A stretch of 34,248 nt of DNA from Catajapyx aquilonaris (GCA_000934665.2 JYFJ02004157.1:1-34248), one strand, 5' to 3'; shown: positions 5,769 to 34,039, counted from the stretch's first letter. Notes: a model not told the origin generated them from the letters alone. Numbers and translations: made by a program.

Positions 5769-5969
5769 CACAGTGGCCTCTTGTGTAACATTTGTCTCGG
5801 CAGCATAACATATACTATTTGGCGACTCACCCAGAACAGGCACGGACAGGCTAGAGACTCCACACTGATCACTCACCACCGAGCAATTATCACTCAATTT
5901 TTCACTGCACACTAAAGAGCCCGGGGGCGGCGGCGTAAGGTTATATGGCGAGGGTGGCTCATCACATCT

Positions 5970-6773: not shown

Positions 6774-6880
6774 TGCACTCGCGTTAACACGGGCAGATAG
6801 TACAGCCAAGGCCGAGAGGAACAGGGGCTAGAGAGCTCAGCAAGCTCGTTTGCACGCAACGGCAGCAGGGAGTGGAGTGG

Positions 6881-10435: not shown

Positions 10436-10784
10436 GGTTGCCTCGCACTGCATACACTTCCTATTCTCCTCGCAATACCTGCGTCACGTGTGACTAAATT
10501 TTTCACCATCCCACGTGAACCTAGGATAGTAGCCTAACTAAGCGAATCCAGAAACAGCCCGTCTACCTATAGTTGCTCATTGTGTTATAATCGAAGTAGA
10601 GTCCCTCCCAGAAACGTATCATTAAATAAATGGCGTTCCATATCCTGAGTGCCTTATTACTGTTATTCCATATGTATGAGACACTTCCAAGTCACATATA
10701 ACGATGCAGATAAGCGGAAGTGTTGGTGCCCCTATCACCCACAGTCATTGTTGTAAATCATTCAGTATAGGGTATATGCCTTAT

Positions 10785-11765
10785 TAGTACAGTCAAATAA
10801 TTAGGGTTTTCGAATGACAAACAAGGTAGAAAGCTGAAAACCGGTGTGCATATGGATTTGAAGGTGCTGAACACGAATCCGTTGAGTCCCACTCTCTACC
10901 GGATGGGGAATTGCCGCCATCTCGGTTTCAATTCCGCCATTCTTGATTTATGCATTCGTTCCTATTTTCGACCCGTGCTGGGTGCTCAAGTAAGATATTG
11001 CTGCGGGACTTGTTGCAAAGTGTTCCCAATAAAGTGTTGTCTCTTTCGGTACCAGTACGTTGGCGGTGTCGCGTGTATTTATTTAAATATGGTCCCTATG
11101 GTATGCAAGTTAGCTTTCGTGAAACAGGCTGTTGACAATGTGATGTCCGTTTCTGCTACTTTTAGGGGTGGGATCGGAAAATGTTTCAAACGAAAGTTGT
11201 AGAGCACACTTTCACTTATAATAAACAGTTTTTACAATGACGATGTCATGAATAGCAGAAATCAACATGTACACAGGGGCTTCTGGGCTTGCGTGAGCTA
11301 CCAGAAGGACTACGATGTCAATATCTTCCCCAACCTCTACAGCAGTGAAACCCTCTTCAACTTTATCTAAAGCCGTTCTCACAATCATTGTATCTGGGTC
11401 AGATTCAGCTTGAACCACATTCATGCCGCCATCTAGAAGGTACTTCATCAGACGTGCAATGAACTGTGCTTTGTTGTTGTTATTTGCTAGGAACATGCTC
11501 TTGTCCGTCAGGATCACCAAGACTCACGATAACGTCTCTTGAAGTTAGTTTCCGTGACCGCCTGTTGTGTTCGACGTCTTTGGTACTCGGACCAGCACGG
11601 TCAGGTATGTGAGAGGTACCCGGACTACGTCAAGAAGAACTATGGAACCGGTGCATCAGTTGTGTTTGACGGGTATGGTGCTGGTCCGAGTGCCAAAGAC
11701 GTCGAACACAACAGGCGGTCACGGACCTCTGATGGCCTTGACAGTCCCGCCTCGATCCGGCCGCC
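10785..11765 (-). mobile_element. AcademX-like DNA transposon remnant upstream of IR copy B
   Basis: Starts TAGTACAG where B and C diverge from A and D. XPG/FEN-like fragments VVFDGY..PS(A/T)KDVEH.RR, FLANNNNK, QAESDPDTMIV and GEDIDIVVLL. No second terminus found. Family call from recalled motifs. Confidence 0.65.
11551..11725. repeat. 48-bp inverted duplication (11551-11598 / 11678-11725) with a 79-bp spacer
   Basis: The arms are reverse complements with one mismatch. The transposase reading frame switches strand here. Confidence 0.92.
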
Positions 11766-12604
11766 CAGCAGAGTAAATATTAAGTCTACAGTACACACTG
11801 CGTCTGCATCTACTGTACGCTTGCGATGTAATCACTCCATCGATTTCGCAGTAATTACCTGCGCACTGCCAAGTGTAGGGCTCTGTATGTACTGTGAAGC
11901 AGTACCTGCTTGGCATTTATTTGTAACTGACACTTCCACGGATTAGATACAAGTTTTAAAAAACCACCGACTGGTCACCAATGTCACTGTTTTGGCTTGC
12001 AAACCAATTTATCTGAAGGGAGGAAAAGGGTAATTATTTAATTCTCTCTGCATAATAATTTCATTCATCGATTCGTAATTTTCTTATTTTATTTTATCCC
12101 CTGCTTGTATTGGGCGATTTAAATATATATATATATATATATATCCTCGCTCTCCCTTGATGTCATCGTGTAGAGAATGTTACACTCTTAACCATTTATC
12201 TTCTCGGCATATGCAGATTACTCTGGTTATTTGACATACAGTATGTGGTTAAATTCAAGACATGTTGACAACAAACCCTTTGCAACATATACTTTTCTTG
12301 GTTGCAGTTACATAATGACAATAATTCGGTGTTTATCATGCAGTAATATCTTGTGCACACAATGTTTTTATATTTTATTGGTCAAAATTATTTTCTAAAA
12401 TGACTTATAACTTGAACTTTTCTATTCTCAATCTATAATCGTTCTATTGACAGGCTCCCGTTCCGTATTGCTTCATGGTTGTCAACGGGAGTTCTTTTTT
12501 CCCCCCCTCTTATGACCGCTATCTTATCGTCGTCCACCGGAAACTTCCTTTTTATTACCAACCATTTTTGCGCAGTGTTCCTGTTAATTTTCGCGTGATT
12601 AGTT
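11766..12604. repeat. Duplicate of 21407-22270 (and in part 715-1064), far-upstream IR flank
   Basis: Colinear from cagcagagtaaatat to ttttcgcgtgattagtt. It is joined through a short filler to the IR 3' flank at ~12628. Confidence 0.9.
12123..12144. repeat. (AT)11 microsatellite
   Basis: Read directly. The paralogous site near 21785 is not expanded. Confidence 0.9.
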
Positions 12605-12894
12605 TGTTCAGGTGTCAACCCTTGCTTTGTCTCTCTATACATGCAGCTGTGGAAAAAAAACAATGTGGGATTCGAAAGCAACATACAAGATGTCATTGCA
12701 TTTTAACATTTTTTGGGGGTACTTTTAATGCTCCATTAAGATCCATCAATGCCATTGGCATGACACAGACGAAGTCATTAAATGGTTGAGATTTTCTGAC
12801 ATTGTGTGTTTTGTCTTCTGAATCTCTAAACTATGAATTTCATTCCCAAGGCTTGTGGCATATTTTCTGATGCGGGAATGAGGAATGAGGCATT

Positions 12895-15023
12895 CTACTT
12901 TGCTAATTTATTGCCCTCTTTGCGTGAGAACAAGTTTGCACCTTTCCAGAATCCAAACTCAAAGATGAATACCAGTGCAGAAAGAGCGATTCCAGTGGTC
13001 CAGAAAGCAAACACAACAAGAAGATTTTCAGCCTGGACCACGTCTTTCACGGGATCGATCTTCACGATGCCTTCTTCGAGACGTATTTTTCGGAGATTGG
13101 TCCAGAAATCGCGGAAGATGCCTTCTCGCTTCCATTCCTCGAGGATCCCACTCTCCCACATCATCGCTTGAAACATGAGGATTCTTGGAACCTCAACGTT
13201 ACCCTTCCCGTAGACAACAGAAGAATAAATATCGTAATCATGCTCAGGTGCCACTTTCACAATGGGATCTCCATTCTCATCCCTCATTTTCCCTTCGTCT
13301 CGGTGAATGTAGTAGTTGAACAGCAGACAGGCTTTCATTGGAGTGTCCACCACCAGTGACATGCAGGCCTCGGGATTAGAAGTGATTGCTGATCGATTGA
13401 TGAAGCTTTCGTATGTTGTGTTGGCGTTGATTTGAGAGACGCCCAGTAGGTTTGGGTAGGGTATAAGCGTCTCGTACCCTTCATGGACGAGGTCACCAAA
13501 GGTCTTGGGCATTTCCTCCTTGGACAGCACGGCCAGGAAGGCCAGAAGTTTGGTGACATATGCGCAGGAGACGATGATGGCCATGAGCCTCATTGCCCCT
13601 TCGAACTCACGAGAGGCTGTGAGTTGGGGAAGGTCGTGAGGCTGACCGATGGGCATCTTGAAGAGAGAGGCCGTGGCTGATCCCAGGCTGATCTTCTCCC
13701 CTGAGAGACGGATGATCATCCACAAGGCTACTCCTGAGATCACCCAGGTCACCAATATCAAAGCCCACAGTGGGGGATCAAAAGGGTCGAACAGAATGGT
13801 CCAAGGGATGACCTCTTTTGGCAAGGCTGTGACGAAGGTCATGAAGAACTGGATCACATATGGAGAAAATAGCACGTACCGGGGGACCTTGTCAGACATG
13901 ATGTACACCATTCCAAAATGGGCTTTTCCGGAGAGGAGGTCTCCAACTATCCCCCTCCAGGTTCCGTTTGGACGCATCTTGTCCCAGTCTCCCGAAGTGA
14001 GGTCAGCACTGGGATCTACGACCTTCAACTTTGCATTGAAGGCGTCCTCCCAGGCGAGGTAAGCCTTCTGCGCTAACCTGAGACGCAATCTCCCACACTC
14101 CTCTAGGTGTTTGCGTGACATCTCTGTGTCTTCGAGTTCAAAGTGTGAGAAATCGACTGTACGGCCATGCAGGTCTCCGCTAGTGTCCGGATACACATCT
14201 ACAGGGAATGTGTCCGGATAGCTGCCCAGATTCATCCAGTTGGGTTGTCCGTGGTCGCAGTAGAAGCAGACAGTCTCAAGTGTCAACTGCTTCGCTGCTT
14301 CATTGGTTCTGAAATGATGAAAGGATCGACACGCATGACCTTTAGTAGTAGACAGTTTTAGTTTGACAGGAGCATAATTATTGTTGTGTTTAACAAGAAT
14401 GAATCATTAATATCTGCTATGTAAGCACCATTGCTTAAATTACATCAATACCTGCTCGATATGACCTTGTATCGTATGCCTCTGGCTGGGTGTTCCAGCA
14501 GCAAATCCATGTTCTGATCCGTCATGTTGCGAAAGTGCAACACGAAGTGGTCGTGCAGATTCCGGAGCTGGACTGTCCCTGCCAGTTGAAGCAGCTGGTC
14601 GGGCAGGGTGGACGGAGTGTCGCAGACCAAGAGGTGCAGGACACACCTGTCTCCGAGGTTCACCTGGGACAGCATGTCCGGAGGCATGGTGGTGAAGGAG
14701 TGCATCTGCTCAGGACCAGTGACTCCGAGGTACTCTCTCCATGGCCTGGGTCGAAAGGCCTTGTCCTTCCCTGCACCGAGTGTGACCGTCGTGTGGTACC
14801 CTCCATATCGTTCAGTCAACAATCCGGACAGAGGACCTCTCGTGCTGTCCTCTCCTTCGCCCAAGGACAGCACCAACGAGCAGTCCAGAAGCTGGTGGTT
14901 CTCCAGCAGATCCAGGACCAGTCTGGATAACAGCTGGTCCTCCTCATCTTCCTCACGCAGATTCACCCTGCCTCCATGAGAGTCCTGCAGGACAAGAAGC
15001 ACTAGCAGGCAGTACGCAAGCAT
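12895..15023 (-). CDS. Divergent ionotropic receptor, copy C; exons 15023-14452 and 14308-12895, 661 aa
   Basis: Same 572-bp exon 1 and phase-2 intron (14451-14309) as copy B. Intact frame and the same IR motifs. Confidence 0.9.
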
Positions 15024-15361
15024 GGTTGCCTCGCACTGCATACACTTCCTATTCTCCTCGCAATACCTGCGTCACGTGTGACTAAATTTTTCACCATCCC
15101 ACATGATCCTAGGATAGTAGCCTAACTAAGCGAATCCAGGAATAGTCCGTCTACCTAGTTGCTTATTGTGTTGTAATCGATGTAGAGTGCCTCACAGAAA
15201 CGTCTCATTAAATGGCGTTCCATATCCTAAGTGCCTTACTGTTATTCCATATGTATGAGACACTTCGAAGTCACATATAATGATACAGATAAGCGGAAGT
15301 GTTGGTGCCCCTATCACCTACAGTCATTGTTGTAAATCATTCAGTATAGGGTGTGCCTTAT

Positions 15362-16326: not shown

Positions 16327-17199
16327 CAACAACATCACGACATTTCCCTGTGAGGGGTAGTCAGCGATGAAGGGAGACGCAAGCCAACCCAACATACGAA
16401 CTAATAAAACTCATGAGAATAAACCTAAAAACAACCCGTCCCATCCCCCACCCCTGCCCTCCTCAGACATCACCTTATCCTCAGACATATTTACCTATTT
16501 ACCCATTAATTAACCTACGCCATTTACACCTATCCAAACAAACAACCCTAGCCTCAGCCACGTCCATGGCCCTATTGACACAAGAACGTCTCGGCTTAAC
16601 ACTAGCAACACCCTTAAGACACTGGCCCACCTGGTCCAACCATGTCTTCCTAGGCCTACCCTTGCCCCTCTTACCAACGACTCCACCCAAATAAACCTTC
16701 TTCACAATCTCCTCCTCCTTCATCCTCTCCACATGGCCAAACCACCTTAGAGTAGACCTACACACCTTATCTTTAACAGTCTCCTTAACATTACACCTCT
16801 GCAAAATCTCCTCATTCCTAAACCTATCCAACTTGGTAACCCCACAAACAGCCCGGAGATAACGCATCTCTGTAGCCAACACCCTACTCTTATGCCTATC
16901 TGACCAAACCCACGCTTCACTACCACACATAAGTGAAGGAACAATAACGTGAGAATAGACAGACAACCTACAGGCAGAAGATAAGTCCTTATTTCTAGAA
17001 AACTTACTTGTGGCACCTATTACTTTCAACCCAGAACTAACTCTCCTGTCTATTTCCCCATCAATTCTACCATTACTCTCAAGGACACTACCCAGGTATA
17101 CAAACTGGCTGACCTGCTCAACCAGTTTTCCTCGTATCTGCAACATTCAAGGAGAAACCTGCTGTCCCCTCTCAAATACCAATACCTTAGTCTTATCTA
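16327..17199 (-). mobile_element. 5'-truncated RTE-clade LINE (C-terminal RT/thumb region plus 3' UTR)
   Basis: KTKVLVF, FVYLGS, GSEAW, EMRYLR, LRWFGHVERM, GKRGKGRPRKTW. (TTG)n tail. 12-bp TSD cgtcgcttacaa at 16315-16326 and 17200-17211. One in-frame stop near 17148. Confidence 0.92.
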
Positions 17200-18153: not shown

Positions 18154-20290
18154 CTACTTTGCTAATTTATTGCCCTCTTTGCGTGAGAACACGTTTGCAC
18201 CTTTCCAGAATCCAAACTCAGAGATGAATACCAGTGCAGAAAGAGCGATTCCAGTGCCCCAGAAAGCAAACACAACAAGAAGATTTTCAGCTTTGACGGC
18301 GTCATCCACGGCATCATCTTTCTTCACGATGCCTTCTTCGAGACGCATTTTTCTGAGATTGGTCCAGAAATCGCGGAAGATGCCTTCTAGCTTCCATTGC
18401 TCGACGATGCCACTCTCCCACATCATCGCTTGAAAGATGAGGACTCTTGGTACCTCAACGTTACCCTTCCCGTAGACAACAGAAGTATAAATATCGTAAT
18501 CATGCTCAGGTGCCACTTTCACAATGGGATCTCCATTCTCATCCCTCATTTTCCCTTCGTCTCGGTGAATGTAGTAGTTGAACAGCAGACAGGCTTTCAT
18601 TGGAGTGTCCACCACCAGTGCCATGCAGCCCTCGGGATTAGTAGTGATTGCTGATCGGTTGATGAATCCTTCGTATGTTGTGTTGGCGGTGATTTGAGAG
18701 ACGGCCAGTAGGTTTGGGTAGGGTATAAGCGTCTCGTACCCTTCATGGACGAGGTCACCAAATGTCTTGGGCATTTCCTCCTTGGACAGCACGGCCAAGA
18801 AGGCCAGAAGTTTGGTGACATATGCGCAGGAGACGATGATGGCCATGAGCCTCATTGCCCCTTCGAACTCACGAGAGGCTGTGAGTTGGGGAAGGTCATG
18901 AGGCTGACCGATGGGCATCTTGAAGAGAGAGGCCGTGGCTGATCCCAGGCTGATCTTCTCCCCTGAGAGACGGATGATCATCCACAAGGCCACTCCTGAG
19001 ATCACCCAGGTCACCAATATCAAAGCCCACAGTAGGGGATCAAAAGGGTCGAACAGAATGGTCCAAGGGATGAACTCTCTTGGCAAGGCTGTGGCGAAGG
19101 TCATGAAGAACTGAATCACATATGGAGAAAATAGCACGTACCGGGGGACCTTGTCAGACATGATGTACACCATTCCAAAATGGGCTTTTCCGGAGAGGAG
19201 GTCTCCAACTATCCCCCTCCAGGTTCCGTTTGGACGCATCTTGTCCCAGTCTCCTGAAGTGAGGTCAGCACTGGGATCAACGACCTTCACCTTTGCATTG
19301 AAGGCGTCCTCCCAGACGAGGTAAGCCTTCTGCGCTAACCTGAGGCACAATCGCCCACACTCCTCTAGGTGTTTGCGTGACATCTCTGTGTCTTCGAATT
19401 CAAAGTGTGAGAAATGGACTGTACGCCCATGCAGGTCTCCGCTAGTGTCCGGATACACATCTACAGGGAATGTGTCCGGATAGCTGCCCAGATTCATCCA
19501 GTTGGGTTGTCCGTGGTCGCAGTAGAAGCAGACAGTCTCAAGTGTCAATTGCTTCGCTGCTTCATTGGTTCTGAAATGATTAAGGGATCGACACGCATGA
19601 CCCTTAGTAGTTGGCAGTGCTTTAGTTTGACAAGAGCATAATAATTATTGTTGTGTTTAACAAGGATGAATCATTAATATCTGCTGTGTAAGCACCATTG
19701 CTTAAATTACATCAATACCTGCTCGATATGATCTTGTATCGTATGCCTCTGGCTGGATGATCCAGCAGCAGATCCTTGTTCTGATCCGTCGTGTTGCGAA
19801 AGTGCAACACGAAGTGGTCGTGCAGATTCCGGAGCTGGACTGTCCCTGCCAGTTGAAGCAGCTGGTCGGGCAGGGTGGACGGAGTGTCGCAGACCAAGAG
19901 GTGCAGGACACACCTGTCTCCGAGGTTCACCTGGGACAGCATGTCCGGAGGCATGGTGGTGAAGGAGTGCATCTGCTCAGGACCAGTGACTCCGAGGTAC
20001 TCTCTCCATGGCCTGGGTCGAAAGGCCTTGTCCTTCCCTGCACCGAGTGTGACCGTCGTGTGGTACCCTCCATATCGTTCAGTCAACAATCCGGACAGAG
20101 GACCACTCGTGCTGTCCTCTCCTTCGCCCAAGGACAGCACCAACGAGCAGTCCAGAAGCTGGTGGTTCTCCAGCAGGTCCAGGACCAGTCTGGACAACAG
20201 CTGGTCCTCCTCACCTTCCTCACGCAGATTCACCCTGCCTCCATGAGAGTCCTGCAGGACAAGAAGCAACAGCAGGCAGTACGCCAGCAT
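18154..20290 (-). CDS. Divergent ionotropic receptor, copy D; exons 20290-19719 and 19570-18154, 662 aa
   Basis: Same 572-bp exon 1 and phase-2 intron (19718-19571). Intact frame and the same IR motifs. Confidence 0.9.
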
Positions 20291-20874
20291 GGTTGCCTCG
20301 CACTGCGTACACTTCCTATTCTCCTCGCACTGCATATGCACTCCAATTTTCCTCTCAATACCTGCGTCATGCGTGACTAAATTTTTCAGCATCCCACGTG
20401 ATCCTATAAGAAGAGCCCATCTACCTAGCAGCTTTTATTGTAATCGAAATAGAGTACCTCCCAGAAACGTATCATTAAATAAATGATGTTCCATATCCTG
20501 AGTGCCTTGCTGTTATTCCCTATAGGTATGAGATATGTCGAAACAATAATTATGCAGCTAATCAGAAGTGTTGGTACCTGTTGACCTGTAGCACTTACAG
20601 TCATTGCTGTAAATTATTCAGTATAGTGTATGCCGTATCTGAAATTGATTTTCATTGCCGAAATCCAGTCAGTTGCGTAACTTATTTGATCTAAAATATT
20701 TCAGCTGCTGGAGTGGGCCAGAAATGTTGCAAGAAATACGTGTCACCTGTTGGGATGTGCTAATATTGTCAGTAATCTACTATTTAATTTTAAAAAATCT
20801 TACGAATATTAATAGAGAATCTCCTGAAATGATTGTAATCTTCAAATCACCGGAACCCCATTCAAAATAATAAT

Positions 20875-21331: not shown

Positions 21332-22189
21332 TAATTATTGCAGTCATTTCACTATGCATTCCTACCAAGTAGAAGTAGAGTCACCTTTGACATTACAATT
21401 TCTTGACAGCAGAGTAAATATAACAGTCTGCAGTACACACGGCGTCTGCATCTACTGTACGCTTGCTAAGTAATCACTTCATCGATTGCGTAGTAATTAT
21501 TACCTGCGCACTGCCAATAAGTGTAGGGCTTTGCATGTACGGTGAAGCAGTACCTGATTTGGCATTTATTTGTAACTGACACTTCCACGGATTACGTACA
21601 GGTTTTTTTAAAAAAAAAACACCACTAGTCGGTCACGAATGTCACTGTTTTGGCTTGCAAACTAATTATTCTGAAGGGAGGAAAAGGGTAATTACTTTTC
21701 TCTCCGAATAATAATTTAATTCGTCGATTCGTAATTTTCGTATTTTAATTTATCCACTGCTTGTATGGGGCGAGATTTTTCTTTAAATATAATTATTATC
21801 ACTCTCTCTTGATGTCAACGTGTACAGAATGTTACACTCTTAACCATTTATCTTCTCGGTATTATGCAGACTACTCTGGTTATTTGACATACAGCATGTT
21901 GTTAAATTCTGGACATGTTGACAACAAACCGTTTGTAACATTTATTTTTCTTGGTTGCTGTCACATAATGACAATAATACTGTGCGTTCGGTGTTTAACA
22001 TGCAGTAATATCTTGTGCACACAATGTTTTTATATTTTATTGGTCCAAATTATTTTTCTAGAATGACTTATAACTCTTGAACTCTTCTATTCTGAATCTA
22101 TAATGGTTATTTTGACAGGCTCCCGTTCCGTATTGCTTCATGGTTGTCAACGGGAGTTCTTTTTTTCCCCCCATCTTGTGACCGCTATC

Positions 22190-22375
22190 TTATCGTCGTC
22201 CACCGGAAACTTCCTTTTTATTACCAACCATGTTTGGCCAGTGTTCCGGTTAATTTTCGCGTGATTAGTTCGTGCTTCTGTGGCGAGCGTGTCAAGTGAC
22301 CTGTGTGTGTCCAGTTATTTGTGTTTGCGCTAACGATAACTACTGCTACAATGGAGATTCCTGATTCAGGTAGTA
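22190..22375 (+). promoter_or_regulatory. Putative promoter and first exon facing the ankyrin-TPR cluster
   Basis: CCGGAA, TTTTCGCG and TTAGTT-like motifs, local CpG enrichment, possible donor CAG|gtagta at 22370 and an acceptor cccag at 22974 before the ATG at 23005. Inference only. Confidence 0.3.
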
Positions 22376-23004
22376 TCGCCTTAACACCTCTGTTATTTCG
22401 AGTCAAATACATAGTGGCCGACATTTAAAAAAAATTGAAAAATGGCAAAAAAATTGATCATTACACAAGCACAATATATTGTGCCAACTAAAATTTCCTT
22501 TATTATTCAAGTTGCATAACAAATTATTTCTACCGATGATTTTAACGATCTATCTCATGGTTCAATGCCAATTAAATAATGTGGTCCAATCGCTTGTCTT
22601 TCTGTCTAATATCGTGTCCTGGGCTAGTACTTTTGGTCTCCCATATTTGGGAAACTCCCATTCCTTCCTTATTAGGCCCGGATGGGACATTCATTTTATC
22701 ACAGATTATACCCGATCATCCGTGGTACGGGTTGCCTGACTCATTACTGGCTCTCCTGAATGATACTGGCACTATGGCTACTTCCAGGTGGCGCTTCGTC
22801 GGACCTATTTCCGGACTGGGATGGCCATGAAGACCAACGTGTGCCGCTCCCAAATGGCTTCCCTATTGCCGCTCCCTATTCGGTACTAACATCCATTAGG
22901 CGTAAGATAAAATTCTGGGACTCGGACACCTTGTTCCTCTTCTGATATACCAATTCACCACTTGACTGCCCCAGGTGTGGGTGTGATCTACCGAGTCCAT
23001 ACAA

Positions 23005-25697
23005 ATGGCGTCACCAGAAGAGAAGGACAGGAGGACGTGGAGTGATCTTCACGTAGCATCCGAGAGCGGTCACTTCCAGATTGTGGAAGATCTCCTCCGA
23101 CGAGGGGAAGATGTGAATATCCGAACTGGTGTCCTCCGTCTGACCCCACTCATTTTGGCAGCTAGGGCTCCCTATCTGGCGGTCTGCGATGAGCTGCTGT
23201 CCCACTCTCAATGTGATGCCAACGCACAGGACGAGTTGGGTAGGTCAGCTCTGCACGAAGCTGCTCGGAGTGGCAGCGTTGGAATATGCAGTCTCCTATT
23301 GGACTGTGGTGCTCAGGTGGACATCCAGACCAACGAGCAGGTCACCCCGTTGCACGTGGCCGCCAGGGCTGGTCATCTGATGGTGGCCAAGCTCCTGGTC
23401 CAGAATGGAGCTGACCTTTTGGCCAAGACCAAGGACGGAAAGACCGCCTCGTATTTTGCAGCCGAGGAAGGGTATAATGACCTGTGTGGGTTCCTGAAAG
23501 GCGAGATGGATAAACCTATTGGAAATCAGGCCGAACAGAGGTAATATTCCTTTGTAGGCCTTTCATGTAAAGATTGAAGCTCCGCAACAACTGTCTCTGG
23601 TTAGGTCGAACTTTTCTACCAAAATTTCTCGACTCTGTTTGCATTTCAGGCTGATAGATTCTCACGCATCTGCAGCAGGGACTGATCAAAATGGTGCGCA
23701 GTGGTCGACTCAGGTAAATTATCACCCCTATTCTGAATACCTATATTGATGAGCATGACTGTGATGTCTAATGTGGGTAATAGAATGACATCAAGACCTG
23801 CGCCTGCATTTGTATTGAAGGACAGCATTGGGTCTTATAGTTATTGTCGATTAACTCTCAATTCTCTTTCCCCTTAGAATACATCGCCCTACGCTTCACG
23901 TCTTCTCTGGCAGCCTCGTGTCTTCTTTTTGTTGGCCCTCATGGTGAGTCGGGGTTTCGTCTACTTGGCTTCTTTTTACTCTCAAAACAACCTTTATTTC
24001 TGTCTCCTTTTTATAGCCCCTATACGTGCAGTAAATCTTGTCTCTTTCAGGTGGCCGTTACCTCCCTTCTAGTCGCATATATCGTCACTGGTGAACAGGG
24101 AGGAAGATTATCAAGTGAGGCTACTTGTATGCTCGCTTCTGTTGACGCACTGTATGACGCAGGAAAATGGAAGGAGGCTTTCGCAGCCCTTAGGAAGGTT
24201 TTAGTAGAGGAGGAGGAAGTGTTGGGACATGACCATTGGAAGACTCTTGCCACAAAGCAAAACATGGCCATCTTGCTACAGAATCAAGGGAAGTATGACG
24301 AAGCCTTGAGTGTTTCCAAAGAGGTTTTGGAAAAGAGGGAAAAGGTGTTGGGTCAGGACCATCCAGCCACTCTTAGGACAAAGAGTCGCATTGCCGCCAC
24401 TCTAAAGCACAAAGGAAACTACGACGAAGCCTTGTGGGCTCACAGGGAGGTTTTGGAAAAGAGGGTAAAATTGCTGGGTCATGACCATCCGGACACTCTT
24501 AACACAAAGCATAACATCGCCAACTTGCTAGAGAAGCAAGGGAAGTATGACGAAGCCTTGCATGTTTCCAAGGAGGTTTTGGAAAAGAGGGAAATGGTGT
24601 TGGGTCAGTACCATCCGGAGACTCTTAGAACAAAGAATAACATTGCCGTCACTCTAGAGCAGCAAGGAAACTACGACGAATCTTTGCGTGTTTACAAGGA
24701 GGTTTTGGATAAGAGGGAAAAGGTCTTGGGCCATGATCATCCGGACACTCTTACCACAAAGGATAACATGGCCTCCGCCTTTCGAAGCCAAGGAAAGCAC
24801 GACGAGGCAATGTGGATTTACAGGGAGATTTTTGATAGGAGGAGAAAGGTGTTGGGTTACGACCATCCGGGCACTCTTGCCACAAGGCATAACATGGCGT
24901 ACATGCTAGAGCTGCAAGGAAAGTATGACGAGGCCTTGGGGGTCTATAGGGAGGTTTTGGAAAAGAAGGAAAAGATGTTGGGTCATGACCATCCGGAAAC
25001 TCTTAGGACAAAGAGTAACATGGCCGGCGCATTACGAGGACAAGGGAAGTATAACGAAGCCTTGAGTGTCTACAGGGAGGTTTTGGGCAAGATGGAAATG
25101 GTGTTTGGTCATGACCATCCGAACACTCTTGGAGCAAAGAATGACATGGGAGTCGTATTACATGAACAAGGGAAACGTGACGAAGCCTTGCTGGTTTTTG
25201 GGGTGGTTTTGGACAAGATGGAAAAGGTGATAGGTCATGACCATCCGAGCACCCTTGCCACAAGGCATAACATGGGGATGGTAGAGCACCAAGGAAAGTA
25301 TGAAGAATCATTGTGGGCTTATGAGAAGGTTTTGGATAAGACAGAGAAGGTATTGGGTCATGACCATCCGCACACTCTTACCATAAAGAGTAACGTCGCC
25401 AAAATTCTAGAGCTGCAAGGAAAGCATGATGAAGCCGTGTGGGTTTGCAGGGAGGTATTGGATAAGAGGGAAAAGGTGTTGGGTCATGACCATCCGGACA
25501 CCCTTACCACAAAGAATAATGTGGCCTCCGTGCTGGAGAAGCAAGGGAATTATGACGAAGCCTTGTGGATATACAGGGAGGTTTTGAAAAAGAAGGAAAA
25601 AGTCTTGGGTCATGACCATCCATCCACTCTTGCCACAAAGCATAGCATCGAAGGCTTACAAAAGAAGAGTATGGAAGCCAAACATGGAATTGTTTAA
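23005..25697 (+). CDS. Ankyrin-TM-TPR protein, copy 1; exons 23005-23540, 23650-23713, 23878-23943, 24051-25697; 770 aa
   Basis: All introns are GT-AG with compatible phases (2, 0, 0), and the exons are conserved in the paralogues. Four full ankyrin repeats plus a partial fifth, a linker, the hydrophobic segment VFFLLALM|VAVTSLLVAYIV, then about 12 TPRs. AATAAA at 25706-25711. Confidence 0.82.
24222..25650 (+). repeat. Coding tandem repeat with 126-bp period (42-aa kinesin-light-chain/NPHP3-like TPR)
   Basis: Twelve LGxDHP-type motifs from 24222 to 25605, a distance of 11x126 minus 3 bp (one 41-aa unit). Confidence 0.93.
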
Positions 25698-26569
25698 CTG
25701 GCAACAATAAATGTTATTTTCATTGTAATGCAACTTATTAGGATGGAGTAACATTCCTTTTTAAATTTCCTGAACAATATTGAATGACAGCCACACAGCT
25801 ATAGGTTACAACGAAAGCAATTATTGTAATGTGATTAGGGGGATTTATTTGGAGATGAAAGGACCATATGTATGCAGCAAGCCCCATTTTGGGAGAAGGT
25901 GAATCACGAGAGACGTATAAAAGGTTTCAAGATTGTACCAGTGAAAGATAAGTTAGCATCAGTTTTTGCTCATTTTACGACCAGTTTTTCGAAGTTGACT
26001 TTAGCCGTTTTAGATCTCAGACCCTCTCAGTTTTGTTGTTGTGAATGACTGAAATAAATACACTGCGATTATGTTAACAAGATTTAATTGAATTATTGTA
26101 ATCTGCATATTTGTGTAGCAGGTCACAATATATCAGTTTTGGTAATAAGCAGTGTCGCACAGCTATCAACACCCGACATGACACTTTTGAGTGGAAGCGA
26201 GTGTTATCTGAAATCTATTACAAATTATATTTACCTCCTTAACGTTGTAAATGATTCAGTTCTGAAAAGATGGAGGTATGAAGAAGTGTTACATCATTTC
26301 AGGAACAAATAGTAGCCTAGTAATGATGACATCGAACCTTTTGTCCTCATATGACATTTCGTATGGTGGAACTGTTGAGTTTAGGGAAGAAAAGAAGTTA
26401 AATAAGGGAGGTACTGTTATTATTCGGCTAAAATGGAGAAACATTTACTGACGGATTTATAGATGTTAAATGAAATTGTTTCTGATTATGTAGGGTTGCA
26501 TTTGACTGATGTTTCTCTCCGCTTATACAATCAGTAAAGTAAGTTTTACTTAATTATTGTAACACGTAA

Positions 26570-27115
26570 TGTAAAGAGAAAATGCTTTCGTTTCAAATAT
26601 TTTAAGCCTTTTCGGTACCCAATCTTACCTCATCTGATTGGACGGGTATATATGCAGTATAAGCCGAATGTCAGATGCATGAGGCTTGATAACAAGATAA
26701 AGTTGTATTCAGTGCTGTGGAAAGTATGGAATGGCATCACACCTTGGAGTCGAACTGAAATATCTGTCTGGAACTTAATGTGATAAAAACCCAATAACCT
26801 GCTACAAAATAATAACTTAGGCGTCTGCACGTCTTATCTTTTTAGATAGAGCAATCTTGGCATGTACATCGTCTTTTCTGCGCTGAAAATCCGGAGCATT
26901 CAACCCAACCTTCCTTAGCTGCACAGATCATGCAGGTCAGTTGTTATTATTTTATCATTGTCTTGTTATGCATGTAGGTATAGTCCATATAGCCATCAGC
27001 ATCCATCAGCACCAGGGGGAAACAAATCCACAAATTTGTGACGCATGTGGATTAACTGTAATGTCGTGAATGATTTTTAAGGAGAGTTATATGAAGCATT
27101 TTTCCTAATGACGTG
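26570..27115. repeat. Upstream region of copy 2, homologous to ~31790-32320 upstream of copy 3; probable non-coding exon
   Basis: Colinear similarity, a shared donor-like GCAG|gtcag (26936 and 32161), and acceptor-like sites 30-40 nt before each ATG. Confidence 0.6.
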
Positions 27116-27346
27116 GAAAGAATAATATTTGATAATATGCTTGCGAGGAATTGATTTAGGACACGTAGCAATCCGGATTTACACAACCTTGTACAATCAT
27201 GTACTGTACCCCCATTTTATGACCTTTCTTTCATCTCGTACCTCTATCAGAGTCGACAATTAATATAGCTTTATGCAAATTAACTGTCTGGTGTGCAACC
27301 GTCTCCAGATGTCCCTGCTGTAGTCTGATCTACCCAGCCCAGGACA

Positions 27347-29871
27347 ATGTCATCAAAACAAGAGAGGGCGGACAGGAAGACGTGGAAAGATTTTCATATA
27401 GCAGCAAAGAGAGGGAACTTCCGGATGGTGAAATATCTCCTCCGACGAGGGGTAGACGTGAACATCCGAACGAATTTTCTCCGTCGGACCCCCCTAATTT
27501 TGGCAGCGAGGCCTCCTCCCTACTTTGGAATCTGTAAGAAGCTGCTGTCCCACTCTAACTGCCTCGTCGATGCACAGGACGAGTTGGGTAGATCAGCTCT
27601 GCACGAAGCTGCCGATAGTGGCAATGTTAAAATATGCCAGCTCCTACTGAACCATGGTGCCCAGGTGGACATCCGAACCAACGAACAGGTCACCCCTTTG
27701 CACGTGGCCGCCAGGGCTGGCCATCTGATGGTGGCAGAGGTCCTGGTTCACAATGGAGCTGACCCTTTGGCCAAGACCAAGGATGGAAAGACCGCCCTAA
27801 ATCTTTCTAACGAGAAAGATCATACAGACCTGTGGATGTACATGAGAGGCGAGGTGGATAAACTTAGAAACCAGGCCGAACCGAGGTAATTCCTTCGTAC
27901 ACTACGCTTACCTTATTATGTAAAGATTAAAGGCCCTCGACGACTAGCATTTCTAATGAGTTCACCTTTCTGCATCAATATCTTCTGGAAAATTCTTCTC
28001 ACTCGATAAAAGTATTGTACATTTTTTCATGCTTTTTTCTGTCTTAATTGACAGGTTTTGCCATGCCACCCAGAGTGACTTGTTACATATTAGACTCGTG
28101 CTTTGCTGTATTCAATTTGACTTACAGAATGTTTCTATTTCCATTTCAGGCTGACAAATTGTCATGCATCTGCAGGCACTGGTCAAATTGCTGCGCAGCC
28201 ATCGACTCAGGTAAATATCTCTTCTGGAAAATAGTTGGTGCATGTGGGGTAGAATGTGGGTGATAATGATGACCTCAACATCTGCCCATGTATATTTTGT
28301 CTTCGTTGTTGCCAACTCTCTGCTGGTACAGTATAGTTATAATAATTATACTGTACTTACAAAAATTCACATCTAATTGCCTAACATTCTACATTGGTTT
28401 CGAATCTATTATAATGCTGGTACTGGTACCCAATAATCCTAACATAATATTGTCTCAGTTCTCTACTAACATACTCTCAATTCTCATTTCCCGTAGAATA
28501 CATCGCCCTACGCTTCACTTCTTATTTGGCGACCTCGCGTCTTCTTGGCCATCATGGTGAGTCGGGGCTTCATCTACTACTTGTCTTCTTATCTCCCAAC
28601 TCTCCCAACAACTTATTCTAATCTACTCCTGCCTCCATTTTTATTGCCTGTTAAGTATTTTATCTAGTTTCCACGTCTCGGAAGAATAGCCTGTTGTCTG
28701 TTAAATTGCTTGGGTGTTGCACTCATGGTCTCTTCACAAAATATGAGATAGAAGAAACTATGTATTTGATATTTAAAAATCAAAGTAGAGAGGAATCATT
28801 CTTACGCGACTCTGATTGTTTTGAAATCCAGGTAATCGTTGGAAGTGAGAGATAAATCGGACTTTGGATTGTGTGTTGCATTCATATTGATCAATATTTT
28901 GTGTGGGTAACTCGAGTAAGTGAATGATGTGCACTTGTCTCTTTCAGGTGGCCATTACGTCCCTTCGAGCCGCATGTAACGTCGTTGATCTGACAAAAGG
29001 ACGAATTATTCAGCCTTTTCATAATTTTACAGGAGAGCGAAATGAAACCTGTAAACCATTATGCAAATACATAGAATGGAGTTTTGATTTTCCGTTCCAA
29101 TTCGGACGCTGCATGTCCCTTGTGTTCGCCGTTTGGACAGAATGCGACCCAACACTTGATGGTGTTGGCAGAGGTCAAAATAATATTTTAGCAAATATGT
29201 CGAATTCATCCTTTGGTCAGATTAACGACGATATCATCATAGGTGAGGCTACTGAAGAATTATACATGGAAACCCCCAGCACTGGTCAAAAAATACTCGA
29301 GGTAGGACCATTCCCAATTGGCAGTAATGGAAGTAAGACAACGAAGGAGGATTCGAAGGATCGTGTTCGGGGGTCGAGCGGGGATGAGCAGGATTCTAAT
29401 GGCACAGACTCCTCAAGGCAACATAATGAGATGGGAATGTGGAAGGAGGCGGTTGATCCTGTTCAGGTCATATTTCAAGCAGACAAATGGAAGGAGACTT
29501 TATCAGTCCTCCTTAGAGTCTTTAGGAGGCTTTCGGTGAAAGAGGAAACTGTGTTGGGTCATGACCATCCCGAGACCCTTGCCACAAAACATATCATCGA
29601 CAAAATGCTGCAGAGTAAAGGGAAGTACGACGAAGACTTGCGGATCGTTTTGGAAAAGATGGAAAGAGTGTTGGGTCATAACCATCCGGACATTCTTAGG
29701 ACAAGAAATAACATTGCTCATTATTTTCTAGTGAAGCAAGGGAAGTACGCTGAAGCCTTGCCGGTATTAAGGGAGGTATCGGAAAAGAATGAAAACATCT
29801 TGGGTCATGACAATCTGCTGGAGCGGCAAGGGAAGTATGACGGAGACTTGTGGATTTACAGTTTTTTTTAA
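27347..29871 (+). CDS. Ankyrin-(TM)-stalk-TPR protein, copy 2; exons 27347-27885, 28150-28210, 28497-28556, 28948-29871; 527 aa, C-terminally degenerate
   Basis: Same exon phases as copy 1 and a TACTAAC branch point at 28464-28470. An extra Cys- and sequon-rich region precedes only about 4 partly deleted TPRs. Stop inside a T8A8 run, and a second early TAA at 29936-29938. Confidence 0.72.
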
Positions 29872-30174
29872 AAAAAAGATGGAAAAAGTCTTGGGTCATG
29901 ACCATCCGGACACTCTTGTCACAAAGAGTAACATGTAAACCGCACAAAAGAGGAGGAACAAAGCCAAATCTGTAATATAAATGGTAACAATAATTCTATT
30001 ACTTTTTATTGTAATGTCACTTACTATATGTTAGTACTGTGACGTCCCACATACTAGGGGGTTGGGCTGACCTTGTTCTTCCCCTCCTGGTGTGTGGGGC
30101 GTCAAGGAAAAGGCCCAATAAGAGAGGAGCATCCTTGCCTCTTCCTCCCCAACCCAAAACCCAAGGTCTGTTAA

Positions 30175-30881
30175 CTTGGAGTGCAAGCAGGGAGCATAAT
30201 TATACTACATAGGAGGCGCAAACATCTGTCGGCGCCTTTGATGTTCGCGTCTCTCTGTTTGGGGCCGTTGCCAAGGCTGGCGGCCATCTTGAAGTGTGGG
30301 TAACGCCAACGAGGTATAAATAGGGTACATGCAAAAATATGGTCCGTCATCATTGATGGTTTTGGCGGCCATGGCAACTACACGGCAAGAACACGCGCGA
30401 ATCAAAGATGGCGGACCCTATTTTTGCCTGTAACCTATTTATACCTCGTTGGCGTTGCACATACTTCAAAATGGCCGCCAACCTTGGCAACGCCCCAAAC
30501 AGAGAGACGCTAAAATCGAATGTTCGCGCCTCTTATGTAGTATATGCTCCCTGGTTCAAGGTTGAGCTAGAACAATAAAACATGTGCAGGAATTATGCAC
30601 CCATTTTGCAACATTTTGTACCACCGAGAAAGAGTTTTGCACCCCTATCGTTAGTGAGTTAGTTAGTTATTAAAGAAACAAATTTGCACTCCAAGTTTAC
30701 GCTGCAATGCAAGTCACTCAAAGTAACGGTTTCTTTGGCTTGGAGTGCAAATTTGTAAATAATAACCTTAATAACTATAGGGGTGCAAAACTCTTTCTCG
30801 GTGGTACAAATAAATGTTGCAAAAATGGGTGCAGAATTCCTGCACATGTTTTATTGCTCTAGCTCAACCTTGCACTCCAAG
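30175..30881. mobile_element. TTAA-flanked MITE (piggyBac-like target) with long inverted arms
   Basis: TTAA-CTTGGAGTGCAAG...CTTGCACTCCAAG-TTAA. The arms match over ~100 bp once the inner element is removed. Confidence 0.85.
30188..30553. mobile_element. Nested fold-back MITE, 366 bp, CAGGG...CCCTG (P- or hAT-like ends)
   Basis: Inverted arms of about 150 bp. 7-bp TSD gtgcaag/gttcaag with one mismatch (30181-30187, 30554-30560). It interrupts the left arm of the TTAA element. Confidence 0.85.
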
Positions 30882-31002
30882 TTAATATACCTCAACACCA
30901 AGGCAGTTGTAAAGTAGACCCGGTACGAGCCGGTTGAGTAGTGAGTCAATACATCTGTGCAAAGTGAACCCACTGAGTATTATTGAGTAGTCGGGTATAC
31001 GA

Positions 31003-31221
31003 GTTTTGAAAAAGAAGGGAAAAGTCTTGGGTCATGACCATCCATCCACTCTTGCCACAAAGCATAGCATCGAAGGCTTACAAAAGAAGAGTATGGAAGC
31101 CAAACCTGGAATTATTTAACTGGAAACAATAAATATTATTTTCATTGTAATGCAACTTATTAGGATGGAGTAACATTTTAAAAAAAAATCCTGGACAATA
31201 TTGAATGACAGCCACACAGCT
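31003..31221 (+). pseudogene. Orphan 3' remnant of a copy-1-like ankyrin-TPR gene (last 38 codons, stop, polyA signal, 3' flank)
   Basis: Near-identical to 25581-25801. Reads VLKKKGKVLGHDHPSTLATKHSIEGLQKKSMEAKPGII, with the stop at 31117-31119. Confidence 0.85.
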
Positions 31222-32333
31222 GTACCAGGCTTGTGTACAGTGCATGCCAATTATTGCACAGTTTGATATATTTCTTTAGAGAATAATATTTTTTGCCAAT
31301 TCTATCTGGTATGGACGTGGTCCAATCACAACCCTGATATAGTCTACTATTGCTCTTCAAAAGTGCAGTACAGTATTTGGTGCAATATAAGTACAGTATT
31401 AGGCCCCAATGTTGTAAAGACAATTTTTATTTCAGTGTCAAATCTATTTAATTTTTATTAATTTATTGAGTATGTTTAGCTACAATAAAGTCTGATTCCC
31501 TTTAATATTTGTTTCAGAATAATAATACAGTACTTTCCTTTATTTTCAGAAAAAACCTTAAGGTAATTTATATGTTGTTTACGCTATGTGAATATTTCAA
31601 CAAATCTGATTATTGCACATCAGACCATCATTATTTTATTGACTAAAATAATAGCGAGTAAGATAATGGGGGTGAAGCCATGTCGTGGAAGTTGAAAAAA
31701 TGGTGGTGTCATCGCCGAGAATAAAGTGAGTAAGATTGGCAAATCAAACGAGCGTGATTAGAGTAGACTTTTTCTTTGTAATGTAAAGACGTGTAAAGAG
31801 GGGAAATGCTTTCATATCAAATATTTGAAGCTTTGTAGGTACCAAATGTTATCTCATCTGATTGTAGTCTTTACACGCATTGAGGTCAGTCGAATGTCAC
31901 CTGCATGAGGAGCACACATGCTAACAAGATAAAATAGTAATCAAAGTGATTAAGTGACTGTGGAATGACGTCACACTTTGGAGTCGAGCTGAAATATCTG
32001 GCAGGAACTTCATGTGATAGACACCAGATAACTTGCTACAAATAAACCCAAAGGCGTCTACAAGTCTTTTATCTTTTGGATCGAGCCCATCGTTCACATT
32101 GTCTGTTAGGAGCTGAAGATTCGTTGCATTCAACCCAACCATTCTTAGCTGCATGAAGCAGGTCAGAGGTCGTTTATTATTGTCTTGTTATGCGTGTGGG
32201 TAGGCTCATAACCATCAGCACTAATGGGGAATAAACTCCACAAATTTGTGCATATATGGATTAACTGTAATTATATGAATGATTTTTAAGAAGGATTGTA
32301 TATGAAGAATTTCCTAACGGTGCATAACGAATA

Positions 32334-32640
32334 CAGGGTGTTCCGCTTAAAGATATAATAACATAAAAATTCATAACTTCCAAAGTACTACTTGTAATGA
32401 CACCCATTACAAAGTGAAAATTTGAAATATTTTTTATGTAACTGAGAAATTTAATAGGCCTGTACTATGTTAATACGAACAGGTTTCTCCGAAAGGCAAT
32501 GTTTGGTGTGGGATCCTAAAAGTGAAAATCAGTGTCCGCCAACATACCCTATTACTGTAAAATATTATTTTCACATATCCGTACTTATAATGTAGATTCT
32601 ACAAGTTCTTAAATTCGATGGTCTGTTATGGTACACCCTG
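32334..32640. mobile_element. Tc1/mariner-type MITE, 307 bp
   Basis: TA-CAGGGTGT(T/A)CC inverted termini with TA on both sides. Absent from the homologous region upstream of copy 2. Confidence 0.75.
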
Positions 32641-32794
32641 TATGTCCTGGTTCTAAATAACTTTGTACATGTATCACATTTAATATACAGTTGCTTATCA
32701 GAGTCAATCATAATTTTTATCACTTTGCGCAGGTCAACAGTGGAGTGTGCAACTATCTTCAGATGGTCCTTCTGTGGTCTGATTTACCGAGTCT

Positions 32795-34039
32795 ATGCCA
32801 ATTGCATCAGCAGAAGAGAGGGACAGGAGGACGTGGAGCGATCTCCATATAGCAGCCAAGAGCGGTCACTTCCAGATTGTGAAGGATCTCCTCCGAGAAG
32901 GGGAAGATGTGAACATCCGAACAGGTGTCCTCCGTCTGACCCCACTCATTTTGGCAGCTAGGGCTCCATACCTGGCGGTCTGCGAGGAGCTGCTGTCCCA
33001 CTCAGACTGCCTTGTCAATGCACTGGATGAGTTGGGTAGGTCAGCACTGCATGAAGCTGCACAGAACGGCAGTGTTGGCATATGCCAACTTCTACTGGAC
33101 CGTGGCGCCCATGTGGACATCCAGACCAACGAGCAGGTCACTCCCTTGCACCTGGCAGCCAGGGCTGGTCATCTGAGGGTGGCCAAGCTCCTGGTCCAGA
33201 ATGGAGCTGACCTTTTCACCAAGACCGAGGATGGAAAGACCGCCTCATATTTTGCCAACGAGGAAGGGTACACAGACCTGTGGAATTACTTGAAAGGCGA
33301 GATGGATAGACATGGAAACCAGGGTGAAGAGAGGTACTGTAATTCCTTCGAACACTTTGCACTTACTTGTTACGTAAATATTTAAGGGTCTCGCCGACTG
33401 TCTCTTATTAGGTGAAACTTTTCTACCTCAATTTCTTCTGGGAAAATTCATCTCCCTCCATTCAAGTTATTATGTAAATTTTTCTTGTCTTTTCATAATA
33501 ATTGACATGTTTTGCCAAGCCACTCAAAGATCAGTGACTCGTTTCATATTAGGGTCATACTTTGTACTGTTCGTTATTGTATTGTGCAGGATGTCTCTGT
33601 TTGCATTTCAGGGTGATATCTGCAGGCACTGATCAAAATGGTGCGCAGCAGTCGACTCAGGTAAATTATCATTCCTCTTCTGGAATGCAATTGGTGCATC
33701 TGGAGTCGAATGCGGGTGATAATGACCTCAGGACCTATCCCTGTATTTGTCTTTAAGTACAGCTTTGTTGCCAAATTAGATTATAATTATTATTTAAGCA
33801 CAAAATGTACTACAGGGAAAAGTCAGAGTAATCTAGACACAATAGAAGGTGTTACAAAAAATACATTTTAATTACATATCATTCTACATTGATTTCTAAT
33901 CTAAATAATGGTGCACTAACACTAACAGTAAGTTCAGTACTAACTCTCTCTTCTCTCTTGCCGTATTGTATAGAATGCATCGCCCTACTCTTCGCGTCTT
34001 ATCTGGCGGCGTCGTGGCTTCTTTTTATTTGCCGTCATG
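32795..34039 (+). CDS. Ankyrin-TM-(TPR) protein, copy 3; exons 32795-33333, 33612-33660, 33974-34039; last exon beyond the window
   Basis: Ankyrin exon close to copy 1. Exon 2 reads (R)VISAGTDQNGAQQSTQ and exon 3 reads NASPYSSRLIWRRRGFFLFAVM, followed by gtgagt. Confidence 0.8.

Follow-up and report, generated by a model that had tools for sequence, protein, structure and literature searches.

The 34,248-nt stretch of Catajapyx aquilonaris DNA analysed here (JYFJ02004157.1; hereafter the window) carries on its + strand what we are inclined to regard as three tandem paralogues (P1, P2 and P3) of a lineage-specific four-exon gene, encoding a single-pass protein of N-in/C-out orientation in which ankyrin repeats and TPRs are separated by one hydrophobic helix. 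In this scheme exon 1 would encode the N-terminal ankyrin domain and micro-exon 2 a hydrophilic linker, micro-exon 3 would contribute basic residues and eight residues of the helix, and exon 4 would supply the other 12 together with a short linker and an array of 42-residue TPRs of the kinesin-light-chain/NPHP3 type.

The P1 model begins with an exon of 536 nt (23005-23540), which carries the ATG, preceded six codons upstream by an in-frame stop, and the ankyrin domain in 178 codons plus 2 nt. Its donor, GAG/GTAATA (the slash marking the splice site), scores 6/9. Micro-exon 2 (23650-23713, 64 nt), bounded by the acceptor TTTGCATTTCAG/G and the donor CAG/GTAAAT (8/9), encodes a hydrophilic linker that restores the frame, while micro-exon 3 (23878-23943, 66 nt, phase 0-0), with the first-ranked acceptor among 24 AG sites and the donor ATG/GTGAGT (8/9), encodes a conserved N-x-S/T sequon, basic residues and the first eight hydrophobic residues of the helix. 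Exon 4 (24051-25697, 1647 nt including the stop) then runs from the last 12 helix residues through a linker of about 24 residues and a capping helix to the TPR units and the stop codon. Rebuilt by script, the model amounts to 2313 nt and thus reproduces the 770-aa product proposed in an earlier, sequence-only reading of this DNA.

In P2 the corresponding exons lie, likewise on the + strand, at 27347-27885 (539 nt, ankyrin domain), 28150-28210 (61 nt; acceptor first of 40 AG sites, donor 8/9), 28497-28556 (60 nt, reduced by an in-frame deletion of 6 nt) and 28948-29871 (924 nt), totalling 1584 nt and 527 aa in the scripted rebuild. Exon 1 of P3 occupies 32795-33333 (+, 539 nt, ankyrin domain), micro-exon 2 33612-33660 (+, 49 nt; acceptor tied for first of 41 AG sites, donor 8/9) and micro-exon 3 33974-34039 (+, 66 nt; donor 8/9, acceptor fifth of 41); its exon 4 falls past the window end, and no TPR match belonging to P3 was found by tblastn/blastn within the window. 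All modelled introns in the three copies are of the GT...AG type. Since exons 1 and 2 together measure 600, 600 and 588 nt in P1, P2 and P3 and exon 3 measures 66, 60 and 66 nt, the frame is preserved in every copy. The two micro-exons previously claimed for all paralogues (64/61/49 and 66/60/66 bp) were thus recovered with the coordinates, lengths, splice dinucleotides and frames originally assigned to them.

This arrangement suggests that the ankyrin ORF and the TPR ORF most probably belong, as exons, to a single gene in which two conserved micro-exons join them, and we infer their splicing from the following signals. In all three copies the micro-exons fall where the gap has its two strongest donors and acceptors close to the strongest: of the GT sites in the gap (33, 68 and 62 in P1, P2 and P3), the two micro-exon donors alone match the consensus at 8/9 positions, they read CAG/GTAAAT and ATG/GTGAGT in every copy, and the acceptors used in the model come between first and fifth of the 24-41 AG sites. 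Such a coincidence argues against an organisation with two genes per unit, one for an ankyrin-only protein (about 179 aa, with its stop inside the donor) and the other for an independent cytosolic TPR protein initiated at an internal ATG, in which the micro-exons would be non-coding DNA conserved from a recent duplication. We consider this organisation unlikely, even though the donors of the ankyrin exon are weak, matching 6, 7 and 5 of 9 positions in P1, P2 and P3 (the P3 donor ranking 17th of 62), read-through of the donor meets an immediate stop in P1 and P2, such that an ankyrin-only product could be made, and a Met lies in frame in the P1 TPR ORF about 27 codons past the acceptor. Two separate genes are also difficult to reconcile with the hydrophobic halves that flank the exon 3/4 joint exactly, with the retention of the ankyrin-TPR pairing in each unit where it is visible, and with the lack in P1 of any polyadenylation signal separating the ankyrin exon from the TPR stop. 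Neither AATAAA nor ATTAAA occurs on the + strand from 22900 to 25706, where the first such signal, an AATAAA (25706-25711), lies 9 nt 3' of the P1 stop codon.

Comparison of the copies bears on the same question. Micro-exon 2 of P1 is 82 and 90% identical to that of P2 and P3, the only gaps being of 3 and 15 nt, and micro-exon 3 is 88 and 85% identical, with gaps of 6 and 0 nt only, whereas identity in introns 1, 2 and 3 is 71/77, 62/68 and 49/54%, respectively, and introns 1 and 2 contain 162-169 gap columns. Exon indels are therefore all multiples of 3, as the sequence-only reading had maintained, against more than 160 gap columns in the introns, a pattern at odds with non-coding micro-exons. 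Likewise, P1-P2 blastn alignments consist only of islands centred on exons, P2 micro-exon 2 being one such island. Exon 1 of P2 is 79% identical to that of P1 in nucleotides and 67% in amino acids, and that of P3 82% in amino acids. The dN/dS ratio is 0.31-0.58 in the ankyrin exon and 0.58-0.96 in the micro-exons; the latter estimate, from about 30 synonymous sites and near 1 for P1-P3 and P2-P3, implies scant protein-level constraint. Moreover, a dS of about 0.35 means that neutral DNA may still show some 70-75% identity, and both considerations lend something to the two-gene organisation. About 30 nt of intron 3 past the donor are conserved to the same extent as exon 3; this conserved intron start, together with the weak exon 1 donors and the low constraint on the micro-exons, counts against the four-exon gene.

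In P1 the exon 3/4 joint generates a 20-residue hydrophobic stretch (model residues 215-234) with a Kyte-Doolittle 19-residue mean of 2.65. No other window of the 770 aa exceeds 1.6 (maximum elsewhere 1.44), and consequently there is no signal-like segment at the N-terminus. By simple hydropathy, P1 thus has the anatomy of a type II protein, with one internal hydrophobic helix, a hydrophilic N-terminus and no signal peptide, in agreement on the predicted helix and on the missing signal peptide with what had been proposed. The complete 20-residue helix, formerly ascribed to the family at large, is visible in P1 alone: the P2 equivalent comprises 19 residues including an Arg (mean 2.02), and P3 retains within the window only the exon-3 half. 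Basic residues do precede the helix in the three copies (QPR, RPR and RRR). The 15-residue N-flank of P1 contains two Arg and the C-flank two Glu and one Arg, the N-flank being the more positive, and this charge balance favours the N-in/C-out orientation earlier predicted from the positive-inside rule. Eukaryotic ankyrin repeats are cytosolic or nuclear. The 770-aa product of P1, which has no signal peptide, most probably spans a membrane once; the helix would serve as its signal anchor, and the N-terminus would be kept cytosolic by the positive N-flank and an already folded ankyrin domain. With the N-terminus so held, the TPR solenoid would be exoplasmic, in a lumen or at the cell surface.

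A single gene could also produce a hydrophobic stretch that is not a bilayer-spanning signal anchor, being instead optional (with exon 3 as a cassette) or a peripheral or organelle anchor, so that most of the protein, the TPR array with it, would operate in the cytosol as other TPR_10/12 arrays do. Skipping of exon 3 (66/60/66 nt) would keep the frame and drop 8 of the 20 hydrophobic residues, the closest solved relatives of the array are kinesin light chains, which are cytosolic, and its TPR_10/12 relatives are, among the matches listed, all bacterial, fungal or metagenomic; TPR_10/12 arrays are known to act intracellularly. Similarly, sequons are absent from the 536-residue C-side of P1, where 1.81 would be expected (P 0.14), and it contains 2 Cys, a composition that looks cytosolic rather than secretory and would equally suit an independent cytosolic TPR protein. 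We nevertheless judge such a non-anchoring stretch rather improbable, because its hydrophobicity equals that of a classical membrane helix, because the basic flanking residues recur in all three copies, and because two large domains cannot share one side of a single-span helix. In addition, the stalk that follows the helix in P2 is enriched in N-x-S/T sequons (6, where 1.44 would be expected; P about 0.001) and contains 4 Cys, which we take as one independent hint of an exoplasmic C-side. The sole P1 sequon, an N-side one, precedes the helix by 14 residues and reads NTS, NTS and NAS across the copies. This conserved N-side sequon, the sequon-free C-side of P1 and the Arg in the P2 helix also count against the signal anchor.

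The repeat domains flanking the putative anchor are well defined. All three first exons contain 33-residue tandem repeats above the Pfam gathering thresholds, at 106-111 bits for Ank (cut-off 21.1) and 95-102 bits for Ank_2 (cut-off 27.3); the Ank E-values are 3.2e-31 in P1 (Ank_2 2.2e-28), 1.1e-32 in P2 and 8.2e-32 in P3, and the domain comprises about five repeats. In P1 exon 4 the 42-residue units likewise exceed the gathering thresholds of TPR_10 (1.9e-132, 428.5 bits, 11 stretches) and TPR_12 (2.5e-107, 351.7 bits). Tandem Repeats Finder reports a 126-nt period in 11.4 copies, and a script counts 11 full units and one partial; these are near-identical, with variation at positions 8, 18, 19, 22, 31 and 33. 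AlphaFold2 folds residues 22-544 of the exon 4 translation into 26 helices (mean pLDDT 86.9), the first 19 residues (pLDDT below 50) lying outside the TPR fold, and the nearest solved structure is the TPR domain of the kinesin light chain KLC2 (5ojf, 2e-46).

Exon 4 of P2 encodes the second half of the weakened, Arg-containing helix, a 164-residue non-TPR stalk and about three TPR units (TPR_10 1.2e-10, 41.5 bits) before a premature stop. None of 5000 shuffles left the stalk stop-free, such that this ORF is not expected by chance, and no Pfam family matches it at E up to 10. Remains of the TPR array, located by tblastn/blastn, extend over 29873-31224 (+), beginning with out-of-frame units (29873-29976, +). 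An inverted-repeat search located nested inverted repeats, that is, foldback insertions of about 1 kb (30201-30544 and 30554-30875), and the last TPR unit, tail and 3' flank (31003-31224, +), with an AATAAA at 31128 (+), are 93% identical to P1 25581-25803. The truncation, insertions and out-of-frame remnants, a fairly high dN/dS (reaching 0.58 for the ankyrin exon) and the failure to find a close relative in databases could all reflect a recent segmental duplication whose products are now pseudogenes, decaying and not expressed. This we hold to be quite improbable, given that the 770-codon frame is intact across the four exons of P1, that ankyrin exons, start codons and splice sites are all intact in the three copies, and that the ankyrin-exon dN/dS is below 1. 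Furthermore, the P3 start codon has been replaced rather than lost, lying two codons 5' of the P1-equivalent position, which is TTG in P3, with the ORF kept. The cluster of membrane-protein genes that we favour would instead have evolved by birth and death, with P1 intact, P2 changed by weakening of its helix, gain of a glycosylation-type stalk and collapse and interruption of its TPR array, and P3 intact up to the window end. With one intact, one decayed and one end-cut copy, the window does not bear out the notion of a tandemly expanding family.

The function formerly suggested, a TPR sensor outside and an ankyrin adaptor inside, would be an extrapolation from this layout. Tentatively, the genes might represent an animal receptor-like family with an exoplasmic KLC-type TPR solenoid, one helix and a cytosolic ankyrin adaptor, in which the variable TPR positions would form a fast-evolving ligand surface. 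Because part of the helix derives from exon 3, a symmetric cassette of 66 nt, the same protein could alternate between a membrane-anchored form, when that exon is included, and a soluble ANK-TPR form, when it is skipped.

Among the 328 matches listed, none combines ankyrin repeats with this TPR type in one protein, nor do the two domains occur together at any of 34 metagenome loci, and no relative of either domain exceeds 51% identity among the matches listed. The array itself resembles those of kinesin light chain and nephrocystin-3 in its 42-residue helix-turn-helix TPRs with a G-H-D-H-P-x-T-L type motif. In kinesin light chain six TPRs come after an N-terminal heptad-repeat region that binds kinesin heavy chain, and in NPHP3 the TPR_NPHP3 domain is accompanied by an N-terminal coiled coil and a tubulin-tyrosine-ligase (TTL)-like region. 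The present array instead comes after ankyrin repeats and a hydrophobic helix, with no heptad region, coiled coil or TTL-like part seen, and its 11-12 near-identical units compare with six in kinesin light chain, an identity rejected on these grounds. Nephrocystin-3 was likewise rejected despite a TPR_NPHP3 score of 136.6 bits for P1 exon 4 (cut-off 100), as no other part of NPHP3 is present; much higher scores are obtained with the generic TPR_10/12 models.

Both repeat types do share one polypeptide, as proposed here, in the plant ANK-TPR subfamily, whose rice genes likewise form a tandem cluster (PMC8211194), and in animal TANC1/2 (PMC5533708), although the available portions of their descriptions mention no helix between the repeat domains and do not report the TPRs as TPR_10/12. 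The literature search, as far as the accessible text extends, yielded ANK-TPR proteins without a membrane helix and none with one. Long near-identical 42-residue TPR arrays with few variable positions and tandem birth-and-death evolution recall NLR-like STAND proteins, such as cnidarian NB-ARC/NACHT-TPR proteins and fungal NLRs, for which the accessible text describes highly similar TPR sensor arrays (PMC4986451). In the present proteins a membrane helix stands in place of the nucleotide-binding module, and an NLR/STAND receptor was rejected, neither NACHT nor NB-ARC being found in five exon translations (Pfam, E up to 0.01).

One paper (PMC12107779), in its available part, names an ANK-TM subfamily in plants, and Kidins220 was among our ankyrin matches. 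With such proteins (plant ANK-TM, Kidins220/ARMS and zDHHC13/17) the proposed product would share an N-terminal cytosolic ankyrin domain, there followed by membrane helices. These proteins are multi-pass and carry other C-terminal modules, and we know of none with an exoplasmic TPR array. TPR-like solenoids are exoplasmic in TMTC1-4 and SEL1L, which belong to another TPR class, are multi-pass or type I, and have no ankyrin domain; the family proposed here would resemble them in exposing a TPR-type solenoid on the exoplasmic side and differ from them in its ankyrin domain.

The anatomy of the ankyrin/TPR locus, whose three units begin at about 23.0 kb on the plus strand, is real. On reading the sequence directly and then rebuilding the models by script, we recovered every exon coordinate of the sequence-only reading. 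P1, the first copy and the only intact one of the three, has exons at 23005-23540, 23650-23713, 23878-23943 and 24051-25697 (2313 nt, 770 aa); the exons of P2 lie at 27347-27885, 28150-28210, 28497-28556 and 28948-29871 (527 aa), and those of P3 at 32795-33333, 33612-33660 and 33974-34039, the window ending after exon 3. As had been claimed, all introns of the three models are bounded by GT-AG and the exon lengths keep the frame: exons 1 and 2 together measure 600, 600 and 588 nt, the third exon 66, 60 and 66 nt, so that the frame is preserved in P1, P2 and P3. The first exons of all three copies encode ankyrin domains (Pfam), and the fourth exon of P1 encodes a TPR_10/TPR_12 array matched by Pfam in 11 stretches (1.9e-132), with a repeat period of 126 nt and, by scripted count, 11 full units of 42 residues each and one partial unit.

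A frame-keeping route across a 500-nt gap is by itself unsurprising. When donors were graded by a crude 9-position consensus score, the sites scoring 8/9 in each gap were just the donors of the two micro-exons, exons 2 and 3 (2/33, 2/68 and 2/62 GT sites), and the acceptors of the models ranked 1 to 5 among 24-41 AG sites. Between copies the micro-exons are 82-90% identical, with gaps of only 3, 15 and 6 nt; the introns are 49-77% identical, introns 1 and 2 with 162-169 gap columns, and in a blastn comparison of P1 with P2 the alignment is restricted to islands centred on exons. The ankyrin exons have dN/dS values of 0.31-0.58, and in P3 the start codon is replaced two codons upstream, with the ORF kept. 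On the plus strand from 22900, neither AATAAA nor ATTAAA occurs before 25706, 9 nt past the stop of the P1 TPR exon, and in P2 an AATAAA likewise follows the surviving end of the array, at 31128. Against a single mRNA stand the weak donors of the ankyrin exons (6, 7 and 5 of 9), the immediate stop met in P1 and P2 on reading through the exon-1 donor, the micro-exon dN/dS of 0.58-0.96 (over about 30 synonymous sites) and the first 30 or so nt of intron 3, which are as conserved as exon 3. Taking both sides together, we consider it quite probable that the four predicted exons form one mRNA, and sequence signals give the predicted gene model good support. The top-scoring acceptor of P1 intron 3, at 24016, was also tried as the start of exon 4 and rejected, as it yields a stop after exon 3 and does not match the frame of the TPR array.

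The splicing of exon 3 to exon 4 was said to create a hydrophobic stretch of 20 residues, and the P1 model does contain one across this joint (residues 215-234), whose Kyte-Doolittle mean is 2.65. Since nothing in P1 outside this helix exceeds 1.6 in any Kyte-Doolittle window, the N-terminus is not signal-peptide-like, in agreement with the reported absence of a signal peptide. AlphaFold2, run on P1 exon 4 alone as a single sequence, predicted 26 helices over residues 22-544 (mean pLDDT 86.9, pTM 0.75), and the first 19 residues, comprising the exon's half of the helix and a linker, fell below pLDDT 50, so that the hydrophobic dodecapeptide lies outside the solenoid. If the helix spans a membrane, the ankyrin and TPR domains must be placed on opposite sides.

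An N-in/C-out orientation is favoured by the hydrophilic N-terminus, by the approximately 214 residues, carrying the ankyrin fold, that are made ahead of the emergence of the helix, and by the two to four arginines immediately N-terminal of it, together with the net-negative C-flank in P1. A further, independent hint comes from P2, where the stalk, a 164-residue non-TPR stretch following the helix region and without a Pfam family, carries 4 cysteines and has 6 N-x-S/T sequons where 1.44 would be expected (P about 0.001), its ORF being stop-free in 0/5000 shuffles; this composition would fit an exoplasmic juxtamembrane region. In the opposite direction, the 536 residues on the C-side of P1 include two cysteines and lack sequons altogether (1.81 expected, P 0.14), and the sole sequon conserved in all copies is on the N-side, 14 residues ahead of the helix. 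The reading that we prefer is that of a lineage-specific single-pass protein in which the ankyrin domain would be cytosolic and the TPR array, of kinesin light chain (KLC) type, exoplasmic, and we regard the whole chain of splicing, membrane insertion and N-in/C-out orientation as only slightly favoured. For such a predicted protein we would infer a receptor/adaptor function.

The family had also been described as tandemly expanding; the word family stands here for three linked copies, of which just P1 is intact. P3 is intact through exon 3. The helix region of P2 has an arginine inside and a Kyte-Doolittle mean of 2.02, and after the stalk its exon 4 retains about three TPR units before the stop at 29871. 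Downstream of this stop, out-of-frame TPR units give way to nested inverted repeats of about 1 kb, in which an inverted-repeat search delimited two adjacent foldback elements inside the remains of the TPR array (30201-30544 and 30554-30875). One has arms of 99 nt with 88% complementarity and nested outer arms, and the other arms of 54-55 nt with 87-94% complementarity; both resemble MITE-like insertions. The segment 31003-31224 (plus strand), which holds the final TPR unit of P2 with its tail and 3' flank, is 93% identical to P1 25581-25803, whereas elsewhere P2 and P1 share only 65-82% identity (blastn), a difference that suggests either that gene conversion took place or that the duplication had another boundary. 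The stop, the out-of-frame units, the foldbacks and the remnant end thus mark P2 as a truncated copy, decaying or re-purposed, and the evolution of the cluster is probably one of tandem birth and death.

The window is eukaryotic, and an Rfam search gave no match. A LINE-type retrotransposon occupies 1582-6827 on the minus strand, with a reverse transcriptase ORF at 3095-4852 (RVT_1, 9.4e-35, Pfam); two further ORFs lie upstream of it, at 4824-5969 and 5970-6827, and by eye resemble endonuclease and ORF1 parts, the latter ORF having no match in a Pfam scan. Also on the minus strand are three tandem gene copies (8318-10483, 12895-15071 and 18154-20434), each with an ORF of 483-502 residues and an upstream ORF of 208-240 residues. 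Pfam assigned nothing to the first copy at E up to 0.001, and an exhaustive representative search with the second found only relatives of 22-29% identity, six of the top ones being Lig_chan/Lig_chan-Glu_bd proteins (ligand-gated ion channel); the nearest Protein Atlas clusters, which serve as a lead only, are arthropod ionotropic-receptor-like proteins. The cluster looks like a set of very divergent variant ionotropic glutamate receptor genes. The plus-strand ORF translations 12451-12789, upstream of the second receptor-like gene, and 22096-22299, just upstream of P1, have in common a long, nearly identical peptide stretch, probably a dispersed repeat. ORFs of 103-215 residues at 16499-17146 (minus) and 11212-11946 have no Pfam family, and the former resembles, by eye, the C-terminal part of a LINE reverse transcriptase.

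TPR_10/12 arrays are intracellular scaffolds and also serve as sensor domains in NLR-like proteins, and ankyrin domains are intracellular adaptors. The P1 model, if true, would wire these two very common repeat modules in a new way, one on each side of the membrane in a single-pass protein; we know of no earlier indication of a kinesin-light-chain-type TPR solenoid acting outside the cytosol in an animal, and this would then be the first. Gene finders readily overlook exons of 49-66 nt that encode half a membrane helix, and the locus would then be annotated as two unrelated soluble repeat proteins.

The nearest solved structures are kinesin light chain TPR domains for the TPR side and generic ankyrins for the other. 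Against longer proteins the ankyrin exon gave 120 listed matches at 33-40% identity, dominated by giant ankyrins and with no TPR unit in any (0/120), and against proteins of 301-959 aa the TPR exon gave 120 listed matches (29-51%; fungi, bacteria and metagenomes), none with an ankyrin domain (0/120). An ankyrin profile listed 88 matches among proteins of 97-314 aa (best identity 46%), with a TPR unit in 0/88; identity among the matches listed in all three protein searches reached at most 51%, and since the top of these lists is taken up by repeat-rich proteins, short-array relatives may be hidden. The same profile matched 34 metagenome loci at 25-45% identity, with TPR adjoining ankyrin in 0/34. 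The Protein Atlas search with the TPR exon returned generic TPR clusters and nothing more specific, and the literature search nowhere found an ankyrin-helix-TPR protein described. An ANK-TM class of ankyrin proteins is described in PMC12107779, and those parts of PMC8195603 that treat oyster receptor-like immune architectures describe others than ANK-helix-TPR. Soluble ANK-TPR proteins, described for a rice cluster (PMC8211194) and for TANC (PMC5533708), also carry both repeats in one protein; those accounts speak of no membrane helix between them.
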